The notes under the pieces: model-generated
What the model was told of the DNA's origin: nothing
The model's input: the letters and a program-made list of their open reading frames with translations, nothing else
Database searches by the model: none
Assembly: GCA_018826255.1 (NCBI GenBank)
Contig: JAHJZO010000042.1
Span: 1-33,972 of the forward strand
Source: Patescibacteria group bacterium
GTDB taxonomy: Bacteria; Patescibacteriota; Minisyncoccia; UBA10092
Direction of reading: 5' to 3'
Length of the DNA: 33,972 bases
Shown here: one piece after another, positions 18,365 to 24,622 of the stretch
How positions within the stretch are numbered: the stretch's first letter is position 1
Layout of the letters: every line of letters begins with the position of its first letter
Position numbers and translations under genes: made by a program

Positions 18365-20317
18365 TTAAATGTCAAGGTTTTTGACTGTTTTGGCATGTAG
18401 CTGGATGAACCTCTTACGTGGGGCTACTTCGTCGCCCATTAATATATCAAACACTTTATCGGCTTTATCGGCGTCTTCAACACTGATTTGCTTCATGCTT
18501 CTGCTTTCCGGATTCATTGTCGTTTCCCAAAGTTGATCGGGATTCATTTCGCCCAAACCTTTATAGCGTTGAATGTTGGGATTTAATATTTTGTCTTTTT
18601 TGAAATCCCCCAAAATTTCCGCCTTATCTTCATCGGTATAGGCGTACTCGGATCTTTTTCCGCTTGAAATTTTATAAAGCGGCGGCTCGGCTACGTATAT
18701 GTGCCCCTGGTTTATCAATTCCGGAAAATAGCGAAAAAATAAGGTTAAAAGCAGCGTTCTAATGTGCGCGCCGTCAACATCCGCATCGGTCATAATTATA
18801 ATCCGTCCATAACGCAACTTCGAAATATCAAACTCTTCGGCAATGGCCGTGCCAAGCGCGATAACCAGCGCCCTGATTTCTTTGAAAGCCAATATCTTGT
18901 CAATTCTTGCTTTTTCAACATTTAAAATCTTGCCGCGCAGAGGCAAAATTGCCTGGAATTTCCTATCGCGCCCCTGTTTTGCCGAACCACCGGCCGAATC
19001 GCCTTCAACAATAAATAATTCCGATTCCACGGGGTCGTCGCTAGAACAGTCGGCCAATTTGCCGGGCAAGGCCAATCCTTCCATAATTCCTTTTCTCAAC
19101 ACTGTTTCCCGCGCCGCTTTAGCCGCTTTTCTGGCTTTCGACGCTAAAATTGTTCTTTCTAAAATTTTCTTCGCATCAGATGGATTTTTTTCAAGCCACT
19201 CTCCCAAGGACTCTCCAATTACCGCTTCTGTGGCGGTTCTGGCTTCAGGATTTCCCAATTTTGCCTTGGTTTGTCCCTCAAATTGCGGTTCTTGTAATTT
19301 AACGCTTATAGCGACCGTAAGCCCTTCACGCACATCTTCACCGGTAAGATTATCTTCCGAATCTTTTACATAACCATTTTTGCGGGCATAGTCGTTAAGC
19401 GTCCTTGTAAGCGCGGTCCTAAAACCTGTGGCATGCATTCCGCCCTCCCCCGTGTGGATGTTATTGGCAAAACTTAACTCCTCGGTCTGCATGTCTTCGG
19501 TATATTGAAATGCCGTTTCCACCACTATGTCATCATAAGTTTTTTCAACATAAAAAATATTTTCCTGAATGGGTTTTTCATTTTTATTTAAAAAGCGAAT
19601 GAAAGAAATTAAACCGCCCTCAAAATAAAAGGTGAAAGAGACGGGAATTTTTTTCCTTTCATCGCGGAAAATTATTTTAACGCCCTTTGTTAAATAAGCT
19701 TGTTCGCGCAAGTGTTCCAAAATTCTTTTTTCGTCAAACCACTCCCCTCCTTTTTCAAAAGTATTGAAAATTTCCTGATCGGGCTCAAAAGTAACTATAG
19801 TACCAGTTATTTTAGAAGTGCCGGTTTTTTTAACTTTTCCGGTTGGCTTGCCTCGTTCGTATTCTTGAGTCCAAATAGCGCCATCCCGGCAGACATCAAC
19901 CTTCAGCCAGCGCGATAAAGCGTTAACAACTGAAACACCGACTCCGTGAAGACCACCGGAAATTTTATATGACTCGCCGCCGAACTTGCCACCCGCGTGA
20001 AGAGTGGTCATAACCGTTTCAAGGGCCGATTTTTTGGTTTGTTTGTGAGTTTCAACCGGAATACCGCGTCCGTCATCAGTTACTTTAACTTTATTTTCTG
20101 GAAGTAAAACAATTTCTATATTTTTGGCATATCCTCCCATTGCTTCGTCCAGAGAGTTGTCAAAAACTTCCCAAACCAAATGATGCAGACCGTCAGGACC
20201 TGTTGAACCAATATACATCCCCGGCCGTTTTCTGACCGGATCAAGGCCTTCCAAAACATAAATGTCTTTGGCTGTATATGTTGGTTCTTTTTTTGTTTTT
20301 ATTTTTTCTTTTGCCAT
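18365..20317 (-). CDS. gyrB: DNA gyrase subunit B
   Basis: VRKRPGMYIG, LHAGGKF, SGGLHGVG, PQFEGQTK.KL, VEGDSAGGSAKQGR, PLRGKILN, MTDADVDG, QRYKGLGEMN. Confidence 0.95.
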   Translation of the reverse strand: MAKEKIKTKKEPTYTAKDIYVLEGLDPVRKRPGMYIGSTGPDGLHHLVWEVFDNSLDEAMGGYAKNIEIVLLPENKVKVTDDGRGIPVETHKQTKKSALETVMTTLHAGGKFGGESYKISGGLHGVGVSVVNALSRWLKVDVCRDGAIWTQEYERGKPTGKVKKTGTSKITGTIVTFEPDQEIFNTFEKGGEWFDEKRILEHLREQAYLTKGVKIIFRDERKKIPVSFTFYFEGGLISFIRFLNKNEKPIQENIFYVEKTYDDIVVETAFQYTEDMQTEELSFANNIHTGEGGMHATGFRTALTRTLNDYARKNGYVKDSEDNLTGEDVREGLTVAISVKLQEPQFEGQTKAKLGNPEARTATEAVIGESLGEWLEKNPSDAKKILERTILASKARKAAKAARETVLRKGIMEGLALPGKLADCSSDDPVESELFIVEGDSAGGSAKQGRDRKFQAILPLRGKILNVEKARIDKILAFKEIRALVIALGTAIAEEFDISKLRYGRIIIMTDADVDGAHIRTLLLTLFFRYFPELINQGHIYVAEPPLYKISSGKRSEYAYTDEDKAEILGDFKKDKILNPNIQRYKGLGEMNPDQLWETTMNPESRSMKQISVEDADKADKVFDILMGDEVAPRKRFIQLHAKTVKNLDI

Positions 20318-22338
20318 TATCTTATTTCGGCATTTAATTCTTTAATCAGCGCATTTTTAATTTTTTCCTCTTCGTGACGGACTTCTTCATTAATTAGCGT
20401 GCGCTCGGCTTGATAGATAATATGGAAAGCCAGATTTTTCCTGCCTTCGGGAAGTTCTTCCCCCTCGTAATAATCAAATAAATCGACACCTTTAACCAAT
20501 TCGGCGCCAGCGCCGTGAATCACATTCAGGACATCGTCTACTTTTGTCTCTCTGCCAACCAAAATAGAAATGTCTCTGATAACCGCCGGAAATTTTGAAA
20601 TCGGAGAAAATTCCCTTTCCTCTTCCACGATTTCAATTAGTTTTTCAAAGTCCAAGTGAAACATCGCGACTCGGCCGGGAATATCCAAAACTGCGAGCGT
20701 GGCCGGATTGACTTCACCGATAATTCCCAAAAAATTTTCACCGTATTTTATATGGGCAAATCGGCCGGGATGCCACCACTTGCTAACCGCCGAGTTATAT
20801 TGGCAATCCGTAATACCCAGATTTTCAAACAAAACATCAAGATCGCCTTTCAGTTCAAAAAATCTTCTGCCGGCTACATTTTCCTTGCTCTCTTTTACGG
20901 CGTAAATTCCGGCCAAACTAAGCCGTTCGGAAGCGGAAGCGGAAAAAACTTTTCCTGATTCAAAAAATTTCACCTTTTCGAAAAAACGAAAATTATTTTT
21001 TATATTTTTCAAAAGACCGAAAGTCAATTCCGGCCGCAGAAATTTAAAATCTTCGCTCGCTGGATTTTGAATTTCTATCAACTTACTTTTGTAATCTTCA
21101 CTGATATCCTTATCACCGACAAAAGAATAATTATAAACTTCGCTGAAACCGACGCCGGTTAAAATATCTCTGGTTTTATTGATTAAAAAATTAACATCAT
21201 TTTTTTTCGGAATAGTTATGGCGGCCACCGGCATTTGGCCTTTGAGATTCATACAGCCGTAAATTCGAAAGACCTCTTCAATCAAGTCCTCTTCTATTTC
21301 CAAATCAAGCCGCGCCGTCGGAACGGTGACAAAAAATAGTTTTTTACCTACGATTTTAATTTTGGCTCCCAGCGATTCCAGAGTTATTTTGACGAATTCC
21401 GGCTTAATATTTTCGCCGACTAATTTGTTTAAATAATCCAGATTCAGTTTTATTGTTCTGAGTAAAAATTTCTTCGGATAAATATCAATTTTGCCGCTCG
21501 CAATTTTAACGCCGGGAATAATTTCTTGAATCAAAGCGCAAACCCTGTTCATGCCAAATTCGGTCAAATTCGGGTCAATGCCGTAAGAAAAGCGGATGGC
21601 GGCATCAGTGTTCAACCCCAAAGTCCGGCTGGTTCGCTTGATGGCGCCCGATTCAAAATTAGCCGATTCAATAACGATTGTTCTTGTTTTTTCAGATATG
21701 CCAGTTTCCAGCCCGCCTTTGATTCCGGCAATAGCGGCGGGTTTTTTGCTGTCGGCGATTACCAAAACATCTTCATCCAAATCATAACGGCCGCCGTCAA
21801 GTGTATTGATTTTTTCGCCTTTTCGCGCAGTTCTTACGATAATTTTTTTGCCGTCTAACTTGTCATAATCAAAAGCGTGCAGCGGCTGGCCGATTTCAAG
21901 CATTACATAATTCAAAATATCCACGATATTGTTGTGAGAATTTATATTGAATTCGGCAAGCGCGTTTTTTAGCCATTTTGGAGAATGCCCGATTTTAACA
22001 TCAGTCAGGACTTTGGCGATATAGCGCGGACACAAATTTTTTTCAGTAACGCTTACTGAAATAAAATCGCCGGATTTAATTTTTGAATCTTCCCGAAATT
22101 TGGTTTTTAATTTTTTCAGCGGCTTTTTGGTCAACGTGGCAATTTCTTTCACTAGACCGTAATGCGACAGCGCGTCATGGGAACGATTGGGCAAAATATC
22201 AACATCCAAAATAGAATCGTTGTCGGTTTTTCTGAAGACCGCACATTCGAAAGAATGCATAGTCAGCAACTCCGCCAGTTTTTCAGGCGTTAATTTTATA
22301 TCAATATATTTTTTTAAAAAGTTATAAGAAAATTTCAT
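20317..22338 (-). CDS. pheT: Phenylalanine--tRNA ligase beta subunit (short form lacking the B2 OB domain)
   Basis: PNR.DALSH.G, GQPLHAFD, R.DL..EEDLIEEV.RIYG, C-terminal SKFPAVIRDIS (FDX-ACB); follows pheS. Confidence 0.95.
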   Translation of the reverse strand: MKFSYNFLKKYIDIKLTPEKLAELLTMHSFECAVFRKTDNDSILDVDILPNRSHDALSHYGLVKEIATLTKKPLKKLKTKFREDSKIKSGDFISVSVTEKNLCPRYIAKVLTDVKIGHSPKWLKNALAEFNINSHNNIVDILNYVMLEIGQPLHAFDYDKLDGKKIIVRTARKGEKINTLDGGRYDLDEDVLVIADSKKPAAIAGIKGGLETGISEKTRTIVIESANFESGAIKRTSRTLGLNTDAAIRFSYGIDPNLTEFGMNRVCALIQEIIPGVKIASGKIDIYPKKFLLRTIKLNLDYLNKLVGENIKPEFVKITLESLGAKIKIVGKKLFFVTVPTARLDLEIEEDLIEEVFRIYGCMNLKGQMPVAAITIPKKNDVNFLINKTRDILTGVGFSEVYNYSFVGDKDISEDYKSKLIEIQNPASEDFKFLRPELTFGLLKNIKNNFRFFEKVKFFESGKVFSASASERLSLAGIYAVKESKENVAGRRFFELKGDLDVLFENLGITDCQYNSAVSKWWHPGRFAHIKYGENFLGIIGEVNPATLAVLDIPGRVAMFHLDFEKLIEIVEEEREFSPISKFPAVIRDISILVGRETKVDDVLNVIHGAGAELVKGVDLFDYYEGEELPEGRKNLAFHIIYQAERTLINEEVRHEEEKIKNALIKELNAEIR

Positions 22339-22342
22339 GCTA

Positions 22343-23380
22343 TCAAAATTGTTTTAAGAATCTAAAGTCGCTTGAATAAAAAAGCCGGATATCGCTTATG
22401 CCGTAATAAATCATGGATAAGCGGTCTAAGCCAACGCCGAAAGCGAATCCTTGCTGTTTGCCCGGAATATAGCCCGCCGCCTTAAAAACTTTGGGATGAA
22501 CCATGCCGGCTCCGGCCACTTCAAGCCATTTGGAACCGGTCTCCAGCTTAATATCCACTTCAATGCCCGGTTCAACAAAGGGAAAATATCCCGGCCTAAA
22601 TCTGATTTCAACCTTCTTTTTATTAAAAAATCTTTTAAAAAATTCTTCAAAAATGGCTTTCAGATTGGCCAGAGAAATATCTTCGCCGACCATAAGCCCT
22701 TCAATCTGATGGAATTGAATTTCATGGGAAGCGTCGGTGGCTTCATGGCGATAAACGCGGCCGGGGACGATAATCCGCAATGGAGGATTATTTTTTTCCA
22801 TATAACGCGCCTGCATCGGACTGGTGTGGGTTCTTAACAACAAATGTTGTTTCGGATTTTGGATTTCAGATTTCGGATTTTTAATCCAGAATGTGTCCTG
22901 CATCTCTCGCGCCGGATGGTCTTTGGAGATATTCAAAGCGTCAAAATTATAATATTCGCTTTCAATTTCCGAACCGAAAACAACCGAAAAACCCATTGAT
23001 TGGAAAATGTCCTCAATGCGGCGTTCGACTTTTGTCAAAGGATGAAGATGCCCCAGCGAAACACTCCTGCCGGGCATGGTAACATCAATTCCCTCTTTCT
23101 TAAGTTTTTCTTCAACAAATTTGTCTTTCAATTCTACCGATTTTTTGTTGATTAAATTTTCTAAGTCATTCCTTACGGAATTGAGACGGCGGCCGTTATG
23201 GGCTTTCAACTCTTCGGGAATGCCCGGGAGTTCTTTAATAAGGTCATTTAACTCGCCTTTGCGGCCGAGATATTTGACCCTTATCTCGTCAAGACGCACT
23301 AAATCAAGCGCTCGGCTCACCGCTTCTTTCACTTTTTTTTCCAAGATATTTATTTTTTCATCAAAATTTTCAACTGCCAT
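22343..23380 (-). CDS. pheS: Phenylalanine--tRNA ligase alpha subunit
   Basis: HPAREMQDTF, LRTHTSP.Q, FHQIEGL, FRPGYFPFVEP, GAGMVHP, GFAFG.G.DR; start ATG 23380. Confidence 0.98.
   Translation of the reverse strand: MAVENFDEKINILEKKVKEAVSRALDLVRLDEIRVKYLGRKGELNDLIKELPGIPEELKAHNGRRLNSVRNDLENLINKKSVELKDKFVEEKLKKEGIDVTMPGRSVSLGHLHPLTKVERRIEDIFQSMGFSVVFGSEIESEYYNFDALNISKDHPAREMQDTFWIKNPKSEIQNPKQHLLLRTHTSPMQARYMEKNNPPLRIIVPGRVYRHEATDASHEIQFHQIEGLMVGEDISLANLKAIFEEFFKRFFNKKKVEIRFRPGYFPFVEPGIEVDIKLETGSKWLEVAGAGMVHPKVFKAAGYIPGKQQGFAFGVGLDRLSMIYYGISDIRLFYSSDFRFLKQF
22853..22880 (-). repeat. Four tandem heptamers inside pheS
   Basis: Minus strand AAATCCG AAATCTG AAATCCA AAATCCG, read as NPKSEIQNPK. 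Confidence 0.8.
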
Positions 23381-23556
23381 ATTAAGAGTCCGAAACAAAC
23401 CAATCCTATTACCAAACTTACGCATAAAACAACGGCGCCGAACACGCCGGCATTTTGGGGGTTAGTCAGTAAAATAACGCTAAAAAAAGACGCCCAAGCC
23501 AAGATATTCGCGAAAATTAGGGCTATTAAATGCGCTTTTCCACCATCCCAAAACAT
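23350..23556 (-). CDS. Small two-TM hypothetical protein, first gene of the pheST operon
   Basis: Two hydrophobic helices around NP; consensus promoter directly upstream; overlaps the pheS start. Confidence 0.65.
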   Translation of the reverse strand: MFWDGGKAHLIALIFANILAWASFFSVILLTNPQNAGVFGAVVLCVSLVIGLVCFGLLIWQLKILMKK

Positions 23557-23591: not shown

Positions 23592-23637
23592 TAAGTGTTG
23601 CGGGGGTTGGATTTGAACCAACGACCTCAAGGTTATG

Positions 23638-24300
23638 CTTACTCTCTACAGCTTCCGCTGCTCCGCCATAATGGCGAATTTGGAGTCTGGACTTTCTCTT
23701 CGCCCCCTATAAATATAGGTTGGGCGCCTGCCGTTAAGTCTCTACACCTTTCCATCCTTTTGATATCAGGAGGACTTGGCTCGGGATTGCCCATTTTGGG
23801 TTTCCCCGAATTTGACAGGTTATCACGCGCGAATTTCTTCGCGCGCAGCCCATTGCAAAATTAAATCCCAAGCGTCGCGATAATCTGCCGAGAGAGGTTT
23901 TCTTTGACGCTTCTTTTCCTCAACAAAATGGATAACACTGCCGTAGGCGATAAACGCCTCAATGGGTAAAACATAAAATATGTTTGGCCCATTTAGATAA
24001 ATTACGGCAAAGTCAAAATCGGATTTTTTGTATGGTTCGCGCAACATAAGGCGTCTATTTGTCTTAGTTCTGCGATTATCTACAACAAAATTTCCTGACT
24101 TTTTATCCAACCATGCTGATTTGATTTGGATTTTTACCAGCTTGCCCCTTACATCCAAAACTAAATCATATGGAAGCCGATCGCCTAAAGGTTTTAGTAC
24201 TGCCCAGCCGTGTTCTAAAGTCCTCATAATCACGGCCTGTTCAGCTATGTCTCCTTTAAGTTTTGTATCCATTATTCAGGATTTTAATTTTGCGGAATCG
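23638..24300 (-). mobile_element. Group I self-splicing intron (663 nt) between U33 and C34 of tRNA-fMet
   Basis: 5' exon ends in U and the intron ends in G. IGS AUG-GGCU (23853-23847), P2 GCGCGAA-GAAA-UUCGCGC, P3 CCUGUC/GGCAGG, P4 UUCGGG/CCCGAG, P5 CCCA/UGGG, R element GUAGAGACU, S element AAGAGAAAGUCC, P8 CGCCC/GGGCG, P9 hairpins. Confidence 0.95.
23823..24272 (-). CDS. Group I intron-encoded PD-(D/E)XK homing endonuclease, I-Ssp6803I-like
   Basis: 149 aa: TKLKGDIAEQ, PLGDRLPYDLV.D, KIQIKS, VDNRRTKTNRR, Y...DFDF, KRQRKP. This matches my recollection of the Synechocystis tRNA-fMet intron endonuclease in length, motifs and location. Confidence 0.92.
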   Translation of the reverse strand: MDTKLKGDIAEQAVIMRTLEHGWAVLKPLGDRLPYDLVLDVRGKLVKIQIKSAWLDKKSGNFVVDNRRTKTNRRLMLREPYKKSDFDFAVIYLNGPNIFYVLPIEAFIAYGSVIHFVEEKKRQRKPLSADYRDAWDLILQWAAREEIRA

Positions 24301-24334
24301 AGCCTTGCGAGCTACCAGGCTGCTCTACCCCGCA

Positions 24335-24369
24335 TTGAAATTATAGAATAATTCTGATAATATGGTCAA
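24335..24369. promoter_or_regulatory. Overlapping divergent sigma70 promoters for the tRNA genes
   Basis: Plus: TTGAAA(24335)-17-TAATAT(24358) with TGn. Minus: TTGACC(24369)-18-TATAAT(24345). Confidence 0.65.
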
Positions 24370-24375
24370 ATATTG

Positions 24376-24450
24376 GCCAGCGTAGCTCAGTGGTAGAGCA
24401 CCGCCCTCATAAAGCGGTCGTCACAGGTTCAATTCCTGTCGCTGGCACCA
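24376..24450 (+). tRNA. tRNA-Met(CAT), probably elongator (Ile2 not excluded)
   Basis: GCCAGCG/CGCTGGC acceptor stem, GCTC/GAGC D stem, CT-CAT-AA loop, ACAGG-TTCAATT-CCTGT T arm, encoded ACCA. Confidence 0.9.
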
Positions 24451-24463
24451 AAAATCAATATAT

Positions 24464-24539
24464 GCGGTGGTAGCTTAGCCCGGTTTAAAGCGCCTCCCTG
24501 TCACGGAGGAGATCGTGGGTTCGAATCCCATCCACCGCG
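24464..24539 (+). tRNA. tRNA-Asp(GTC)
   Basis: GCGGTGG/CCACCGC acceptor, CCTCC-CT-GTC-AC-GGAGG anticodon arm, TTCGAAT T loop, G73. Confidence 0.95.
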
Positions 24540-24622
24540 CATTTGACAAGACAATATTAAAGTGCCATTATTTAGGCATTGTTCTTCTCAAAAAAATGAC
24601 GAAGGAGGATCTGATATGAGAT

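Follow-up and report, generated by a model that had tools for sequence, protein, structure and literature searches.

The group I introns of the Azoarcus tRNA-Ile(CAU) gene and of the cyanobacterial and plastid tRNA-Leu(UAA) genes belong to subgroup IC3 and carry no open reading frame (ORF). A different arrangement is given for the tRNA-fMet gene of Synechocystis sp. PCC 6803, for which an intron of 655 nt with an endonuclease of 150 amino acids is described (PMC1995217). The corresponding structure, 2OST in the Protein Data Bank (PDB), was deposited as a 'putative endonuclease' and is cited as I-Ssp6803I in later papers. In the candidate phyla radiation (CPR), 16S and 23S genes contain group I introns with LAGLIDADG endonucleases, according to the available sections of one report (PMC11270868), and group I introns in CPR tRNAs are mentioned in the accessible portion of Lui et al. 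2021, with tRNA species, endonuclease and distribution unspecified there (PMC8172020). The stretch of DNA analysed here, referred to as the window, is a contig of 33,972 nucleotides from a Patescibacteria group bacterium. On its minus strand it bears what we identify, with high confidence, as a mobile group I intron, of the type known from cyanobacterial tRNA-fMet, that interrupts the only initiator-type tRNA(CAU) gene of its CPR host. As judged from its sequence, the element belongs to the known tRNA-fMet intron type and is newly met in a CPR host; no description of this intron and endonuclease in CPR, or of their multi-phylum distribution, was found in the literature searched, and an earlier report is possible.

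The comparison with the described systems places the window closest to Synechocystis. Both elements occupy the same host gene, they are of similar dimensions (663 nt and 149 amino acids here, 655 nt and 150 amino acids there) and their endonucleases belong to the same family, that of 2OST. Relatives of the endonuclease were sought in 185,579 species genomes (one per species), which yielded 147 places, and the best 80 of the 147 were examined (loci are denoted L and genomes G). The insertion site in the window is that of the 31 cyanobacterial loci in this set, and we take the Synechocystis site to match it as well. The differences concern the host, a CPR bacterium with a 537-kb genome, and the target anticodon stem, which reads CAAGG/CCUUG here and UCGGG/CCCGA in the 31 cyanobacterial loci (Synechocystis itself is not among the 80). 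With the Azoarcus and tRNA-Leu(UAA) introns the element shares a small size, a bacterial setting, a position in a tRNA anticodon loop, a very short P1 and the same Rfam model, whereas those introns lie in other tRNAs, at other positions of the loop and without an ORF. The CPR rRNA introns are alike in host group and in being selfish elements of a structural RNA gene, and the present host has a 23S intron of its own, but they differ in target gene and in endonuclease family.

A first-pass annotation, made from the letters of the window, had proposed two tRNA halves that join into a perfect tRNA-fMet around a group I intron with U at the 5' splice site, a terminal G and recognisable helices. ARAGORN, run with its intron option, joins the halves in the same way and reports a tRNA-Met(cat) at c[23597,24334], 75 nt long once joined, with a 663-nt intron ('aggct-Intron-cataa'). 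The 5' exon (24301..24334, on the minus strand like all features described below unless marked otherwise) comprises the 5' strand of the acceptor stem, the D arm with A11:U24, the 5' strand of the anticodon stem, C32 and U33. The 3' exon (23597..23637) contributes the CAU anticodon, A37, A38, the 3' strand of the anticodon stem, the variable loop, the T arm, the 3' strand of the acceptor stem and A73; CCA is not encoded. Between them the intron (23638..24300) separates tRNA nucleotides 33 and 34 and begins with C24300. Both proposed splice-site bases are in place, U24301 being the last base of the 5' exon and G23638 (omega-G) the last base of the intron. These boundaries are identical in 78 of the 80 related loci, and every one of the 79 aligned introns has a G before CATAACC. 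Plain ARAGORN and the Rfam tRNA model miss the split gene and report two other tRNAs in this area, a tRNA-Met(cat) at 24376-24450 and a tRNA-Asp at 24464-24540, so that for these two tools, ARAGORN at its default settings, the expectation that standard annotation would overlook the gene is borne out.

The insert matches the Rfam group I model (RF00028, Intron_gpI) at 23892..23664 with 64.8 bits (gathering score 50, E 1.9e-14) over model positions 1-253, and the match was recovered again in a search of the whole host genome. This covariance-model hit upholds the assignment to group I, and the helices that had been proposed are found as well, in the form of a P1 duplex, a 3-bp P10 and covarying helices P2 to P9. 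The 5' side of P1 (24279..24304) is formed by the exon GGCU (24304-24301) followed by the 5' strand of an extension (GCAAAAUUAAAAUCC, 24293-24279), and its 3' side (23847..23869), placed within the last ORF codons, by the extension strand 23869-23855 and the internal guide GGCU (23850-23847). In the minimum-energy duplex the splice-site U24301 lies opposite G23850 of the guide, and beyond a small internal loop the extension adds 14 bp (24293-24279 with 23869-23855). The energy calculated for P1 and its extension is -20.5 kcal/mol, against a shuffled mean of -8.9, and one of 500 shuffles is as low. An advantage of at least 3 kcal/mol over the shuffled mean is seen in 72 of 79 loci, a count in which the values for the window and L001 are invalid. 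The extension changes on both strands together in L002, L003, L004, L010, L011, L019 and L078, and the GGGC of the guide region is conserved across the 79-intron alignment. For P10, the AUG at 23853-23851 is able to pair with the CAU of the 3' exon. The brevity of these helices weighs against the fold, P1 proper being of 4 bp with two G-U pairs among them and P10 of 3 bp; very short P1 and P10 helices are usual in tRNA group I introns.

Downstream of P1 the evidence for the fold comes from covariation. The P2 hairpin (GCGCGCGA / UCGCGCGU, 23825..23846) is changed on both sides at seven of its eight pairs, with 98.7% of cells paired, and the ribozyme core with the consensus helices P3 to P9 (23664..23892) is delimited by the Rfam match and by covariation. 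For this analysis the last ~233 nt of 79 introns (78 loci and the window) were aligned together with eight exon nucleotides. The RNAalifold consensus of these introns contains 48 pairs in 10 helices, and both-side changes were observed in 36 of the 48. Standard pairs fill 98.3% of the cells of this fold, a value that falls to 33-40% when the partners are slid by 1-3 columns, and none of 500 shuffles reached any of the five covariation measures; the structure was drawn from the alignment on which it was scored, which favours it somewhat, and the margin is large. P7, a pseudoknot outside the 48 modelled pairs, has nearly invariant strands, and the sequence blocks GGUGUAGAGACU and AGUCCAGAC are almost invariant among the 79 aligned introns.

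The loop of the P1 extension accommodates the homing endonuclease ORF (23823..24272), which encodes 149 amino acids of the I-Ssp6803I / PDDEXK_5 type and has no internal stops. It is the sole long ORF on the minus strand within the insert, and running from 24272 to 23823 it is wholly inside the intron (24300..23638). It starts 28 nt into the intron and ends with a stop codon (23825-23823) in the 3' strand of P2, so that the last ~22 codons double as the return strand of the P1 extension, the guide sequence and P2. The protein matches PDB entry 2OST with an E of 7.9e-60 over residues 2-145 (144 residues) and Pfam PF11645 (PDDEXK_5) with 163.2 bits (cut-off 26.1) over profile positions 1-137 of 138, in line with the initial reading of an intact I-Ssp6803I-like ORF. 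The ratio of nonsynonymous to synonymous substitution rates (dN/dS) is 0.112 and 0.116 with respect to the two closest relatives (L001 and L002), values that indicate that the ORF is under purifying selection. Residues E11, D36, Q49 and K51, presumably catalytic in enzymes of the I-Ssp6803I type, are conserved in at least 97% of 78 homologues, and the motifs P34-Y-D36 and Q49-I-K51 fit the P-x-D ... x-K pattern. In three of the 80 loci (L050, L055 and L079) the ORF is cut to 34, 53 and 21 codons, respectively, although the tblastn match continues; these we read as decaying copies, as predicted by the homing cycle. On the evidence of sequence and fold, the insert is a real and intact group I intron of the mobile kind with an I-Ssp6803I-type endonuclease, and very probably a functional one.

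The host genome (G000), a metagenome-assembled genome (MAG), consists of 49 contigs that add up to 536,896 bp; its completeness is 96.84% and its contamination 0.19%. L001 (Candidatus Azambacteria bacterium) is collinear with the window at a nucleotide identity of 84-85%, L002 (Parcubacteria group bacterium) at one of 73-79%, and the order tRNA-Asp / tRNA-Met / split tRNA is common to the three. Judging from these flanks, which fall inside CPR, the genome is that of a CPR relative of Candidatus Azambacteria, as the CPR-like character noted in the first pass had suggested. That the locus represents a dead gene, or an artefact of assembly or binning such as a foreign contig in a CPR bin, with the working initiator elsewhere, is scarcely credible. 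Such an origin would be compatible with a MAG in 49 contigs and with the labels of some MAGs in the comparison set that appear wrong (L044, L013), but the 34-kb contig is collinear with contigs of two independently assembled CPR MAGs, contamination is at the low value given above, and the stretch is present in groundwater runs from several studies. In addition, the ribozyme core is intact, as are the ORF and the exons, and the assembly contains the exon sequence only once.

A closer look at the joined tRNA shows a regular cloverleaf with a CAU anticodon and A11:U24 in the D stem. A11:U24 is a bacterial initiator mark. The description as a perfect tRNA-fMet stands for the cloverleaf and for this pair; it does not stand for two further initiator marks. 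Position 1:72 is occupied by U1:A72, a weak pair, in place of the initiator C-A mismatch, and the anticodon stem has two, not three, consecutive G:C pairs (G30:C40 and G31:C39), 29:41 being A:U. Both points weigh against an initiator. In a MAG of 49 contigs, a second initiator gene could also reside in the missing ~3%. The same or similar two-pair anticodon stems are seen in L001, L002, L053, L069 and L072, and natural initiators with a variant 29:41 pair exist. Among 11 orthologues from the host family, position 1 is C in five and U in the others, with A72 in all, and since U1 is also found in uninterrupted genes (where both states occur) it is a lineage trait and not decay.

The rest of the tRNA complement helps to assign the two CAU tRNAs. 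The intact one (24376-24450), 42 nt away from the split gene, has G1:C72 and is the sole other CAU tRNA in the genome. Plain detection finds 40 tRNAs, among them a tRNA-Ile(UAU), and no member of the TilS family was detected in the host genome; AUA is therefore probably read without lysidine, and the intact CAU tRNA would be the elongator and the split one the initiator. The tRNA-Ile(UAU) lies at G000:C32:163-237. The genome also encodes fmt (268 bits), and the 3' exon is single-copy in its assembly. The contrary assignment, with the split gene as an elongator tRNA-Met or as a tRNA-Ile2(CAU) comparable to the tRNA-Ile(CAU) that hosts an intron in Azoarcus, would agree with a pairable U1:A72 and with an anticodon stem closed by only two G:C pairs. 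It is very unlikely in view of the A11:U24 pair, of the C1 opposite A72 in five of the 11 family orthologues, of the second CAU tRNA with its G1:C72, and of the combination of tRNA-Ile(UAU) and fmt with no TilS found. Moreover, 78 other loci have genes of the CGCGGGG...GGGCU|CAUAACCC type with which the exons align lengthwise, and the Azoarcus intron is said to be positioned after the anticodon, not before it as in the window. We thus regard the split gene as the initiator tRNA orthologue, most likely the working initiator although not a canonical one, and because no second copy of an initiator-type tRNA is seen in the genome the intron presumably splices.

These features are compatible with the following course of events. 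A 738-nt precursor would be transcribed from the gene's own promoter-like site, TTGACC-18 nt-TATAAT (24340..24369), which matches the consensus at 11 of 12 positions and leaves 5 nt between its -10 hexamer and the first nucleotide of the tRNA; three promoter-like sites were found in the region against 2.1 expected, and the assignment is by consensus match alone. A TATAAT is present at the equivalent place upstream of the gene in the family relatives. The intron would fold as a group I ribozyme, with P1 formed by exon GGCU and guide GGCU, the 14-bp extension looping out the ORF, and P2 to P9 downstream. Self-excision would proceed by two guanosine-initiated transesterifications, with cleavage after U33 and exon ligation at omega-G23638, assisted by the short P10, and ligation would restore the CUCAUAA anticodon loop. 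The joined tRNA would then be formylated by the Fmt of the genome and start translation. The 149-amino-acid PD-(D/E)XK protein, in turn, is predicted to cleave tRNA-fMet genes that lack the intron at their uninterrupted anticodon-arm sequence. Genes of this kind are present in sister species, and repair from an intron-bearing copy would copy the intron in (homing).

The state of the site within the host family was determined in 12 species genomes, 11 of which contain the 3' exon. Intron and ORF are present in three of the 11, namely the host genome, its congener G010 and, from another genus, G004, and seven have an uninterrupted gene (G001, G002, G003, G006, G007, G008 and G009). In two congeners the empty site is identical to the window exons. 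The uninterrupted site of the sister species is of the GCTCGCAAGGCT-CATAACCTTGAGGTC type, the presumed target of the endonuclease. Two uninterrupted alleles, L099 (G002) and L106 (G009), have C33 for the near-universal U33 (GGCC|CATAA). This replacement removes the U needed at a group I 5' splice site and alters the presumed target centre, and the two alleles may for this reason be resistant to homing. A separate case is G011 (L108:1-300, same genus), where the 3' half of the tRNA-fMet is present and the 5' side (GGGGGCGGAACAAACGAGGCT|CATAACC...) is not tRNA-like beyond the anticodon stem; the Rfam tRNA score of L108 is 25.7 bits, under the cut-off, and no group I match was found in the 257 nt available upstream.

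A point that weighs against present mobility is that intron and flanks diverge in step, with 85% and 84% nucleotide identity, respectively, between the window and L001, and 79% and 73% between the window and L002. This parallel divergence speaks against recent mobility in the Azambacteria-like lineage. It could be accounted for by an intron that is now immobile and vertically inherited, in which the ribozyme, being indispensable, still splices and the ORF no longer drives homing, the family pattern reflecting repeated precise losses only and the ORF being kept for another role or because its 3' end forms part of P1 and P2. The shared synteny of tRNA-Asp, tRNA-Met and split tRNA, the overlap of the last ~22 codons with the P1 extension, guide sequence and P2, and an endonuclease tree (see below) that clusters by phylum and in which a single CPR clade is not rejected are all in keeping with such a history. 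However, the dN/dS of 0.11 applies to all 149 codons and not to the overlap only, E11, D36, Q49 and K51 are conserved, and intact, identical empty sites persist in congeners. ORF-less and ORF-truncated versions exist elsewhere, which means that the ribozyme does not need the ORF. We regard immobility as a possible but rather doubtful alternative, for either account of why the ORF is retained, and favour an intron that is still mobile.

Outside the family the association of endonuclease and target gene is maintained. By pattern search, a tRNA-fMet-type gene split at GGCT|CATAA was found in 78 of the 80 loci. The remaining two were read by eye: L021 shows a 5' exon and an intron-borne ORF, followed by the contig end, and in L058 the ORF comes directly after a tRNA 3' end. 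All 80 loci are therefore placed, by their sequence, in or beside a tRNA-fMet gene of the GGCU|CAUAA type. According to the record titles they distribute among Cyanobacteriota (31), Bacteroidota (22), Pseudomonadota (6), Acidobacteriota (4), Chloroflexota (3), Nitrospirota (3), Planctomycetota (2), Uhrbacteria (2), Azambacteria (1), Omnitrophota (1) and Thermodesulfobacteriota (1), with no phylum in the title of the other 4. This amounts to about ten phyla, including three CPR groups, and bears out one of the alternatives raised in the first pass, a much wider distribution than the cyanobacterial one, with the same endonuclease at the same tRNA-fMet site throughout. Certain labels look doubtful. 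L044 ('Acetobacteraceae') and L008 ('uncultured bacterium') have Nostocales-type exons and are nested among Nostoc in the tree, and L013 ('Proteobacteria') pairs with a Ktedonobacterales locus and has the same unusual D loop; mis-binning is the likely origin of these three labels. Within the host phylum the element is rare: of 401 evenly sampled genomes, three (the host genome among them) contain a close homologue, of at least 60% identity, and seven more have matches of 26-35% identity only.

Two layouts were distinguished among the 80 loci by counting intron lengths. In 38 of them, exemplified by the Calothrix locus L014:2600-3459, the intron is ORF-less (240-340 nt) and the endonuclease is encoded by a free-standing gene further downstream on the strand of the tRNA, mostly at a distance of 50-150 nt and at most of ~2 kb. 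This layout is found in 31 of 31 cyanobacterial loci, in five of Bacteroidota (L060, L063, L065, L073 and L076), in L008 and L044, and probably in L058 too. In L014 the free-standing gene is preceded by a hairpin with a T run. The P1-extension loop of the ORF-less introns has a relic (ACGCTT...) of the ORF 3' end, and the free-standing ORF has an intron-derived AATTTT.CAA tail. No description of a free-standing layout beside tRNA-fMet was found in the literature searched. It recalls the 'collaborative homing' of phage T4 mobE and cyanophage F-CphI, in which, in the portions of the sources available, a free-standing endonuclease lies beside an intron; that is not the layout of the window, and the phage cases, as described in those portions, use other endonuclease families. 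A broader proposal, which we advance tentatively and hold to be rather less probable than its negation, is that of a pan-bacterial selfish element on the near-universal initiator anticodon arm, repeatedly crossing phyla and entering even the sole initiator gene of CPR bacteria with 0.5-Mb genomes, with an endonuclease gene that switches between intron-borne and free-standing states.

The phylogeny of the endonuclease was addressed with a quick tree search on 78 rows, from which the three truncated ORFs were left out. In the tree the four Acidobacteriota rows group together, as do 27 of the 29 cyanobacterial ones, and the Bacteroidota rows, all 21 of them, fall on one side. The window, L001 and L002 are joined (support 99), and L003, the nearest non-CPR row, is their sister with a support of 88 in the Shimodaira-Hasegawa-like approximate likelihood ratio test (SH-aLRT). 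The two Uhrbacteria rows appear elsewhere on long branches, and the backbone is weak. A single clade of all five CPR rows is not rejected by the approximately unbiased (AU) test (p 0.673), and the tree constrained to this clade is 9.9 log-likelihood units above the free quick search. Read in this way, the tree proves neither repeated entry into CPR nor cross-phylum homing. The first-pass annotation had inferred cross-phylum homing and had pointed to an endonuclease tree following host phylogeny as the outcome that would remove this inference; the clustering, largely by phylum, comes near to that outcome, and the patchy occurrence still favours transfer.

Other comparisons favour it as well. 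Between the window and five genomes from other groups, endonuclease identity is 65-73%, whereas the GatA proteins of these genomes share 43-55% with that of the host; the comparison, which covers five of the 80 host genomes and sets one housekeeping protein against a short target-constrained protein, is suggestive only. Transfer would be the likelier history because the element is rare and patchy (three of 401 CPR genomes and three of 11 in the family) and because the endonuclease is more alike across phyla than GatA. A patchy distribution of PF11645, suggesting horizontal gene transfer, is described in a 2012 survey (PMC3424549). Cross-phylum homing as such is plausible but unproven. A recent homing event into CPR from cyanobacteria or another phylum appears unlikely. 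The identities with respect to GatA, the close homologues in only three of the 401 sampled CPR genomes and the position of the non-CPR row L003 next to the window clade would fit it, but no near-identical copy was found in another phylum, the best non-CPR endonuclease match being 73% and the ribozyme core being 63-72% identical to all non-CPR introns, and the weak backbone leaves CPR monophyly not rejected. Nor was a vector found among phage, plasmid and IMG/VR records: 21 matching phage records have partial matches only (up to 42% identity over part of the protein), plasmid records gave no endonuclease match, and in IMG/VR there is one viral contig homologue with 54% identity. In this contig of 4.3 kb (L109:1374-1999) the homologue is free-standing, with an uninterrupted tRNA-Met(CAU) on one side and on the other a tRNA whose anticodon is UUA ('tRNA-Stop' in ARAGORN), which may point to a phage link for the endonuclease family.

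The stretch is present in groundwater metagenomes of several studies, and contigs from RNA runs X16 and X24 and from DNA runs X3 and X4 were compared with it at a likeness of 90. A joint that skips exactly 663 nt was present at a depth of 43 in a single RNA contig and at a depth of 502 in two DNA contigs. Its presence in DNA contigs, at far higher depth, indicates that it reflects the intron-less genes of relatives; it was rejected as evidence of splicing. A 357-nt RNA-library contig falls on the ORF (23925-24281) with 12 differences, which corresponds to a related strain, and DNA carry-over is possible. Two variants of the intron lack part of the ORF, one skipping 441 nt (23854-24296, DNA contig, X3) and the other 385 nt (23871-24257, RNA-library contig, X24), from which ORF-less relatives can be placed in the same habitats. 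Together with the truncated ORFs of three of the 80 loci, they fit a cycle of gain, decay and loss. In another DNA contig 34 other letters stand in place of 23824-24300.

Two more group I introns, both ORF-less, were located in the host genome. One of 214 nt splits the tRNA-Phe(GAA) gene at G000:C29:5008-5294 on the plus strand (L082:1481-1767), with an Rfam score of 63.6 bits; it is read as lying between nucleotides 33 and 34, with an exon ending in CCU and an intron ending in AUG, and plain ARAGORN also misses this split tRNA. The third intron (50.8 bits) is in the 23S rRNA gene, at G000:C28:15268-15482 on the minus strand (L083). As regards the neighbourhood of the split tRNA-fMet, a segment of ~3 kb of the window (20291-23347), with a pheS-like ORF (22343-23425), is without counterpart in L001:3956-5134 (~1.2 kb).

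As a consequence of the two split tRNAs, default tRNA finders present a 96.8%-complete genome seemingly without initiator tRNA and tRNA-Phe, and surveys of 'missing' CPR tRNAs therefore need an intron-aware pass. The location of the intron implies that a minimal-genome organism tolerates a selfish ribozyme in a single-copy gene needed at every translation initiation, which in turn would imply efficient splicing in vivo. The host family, with its intron-plus and intron-minus sister species and identical empty sites, offers material for a study of the homing cycle. On a wider scale, the intron-borne and free-standing layouts over about ten phyla provide material on the long-debated horizontal movement of bacterial group I introns, for which a 2014 review, in the part available, found 'little evidence' among bacterial species (PMC3984707). 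If the switching between the two layouts is true, these loci would constitute a natural record of the assembly and dismantling of a mobile intron.

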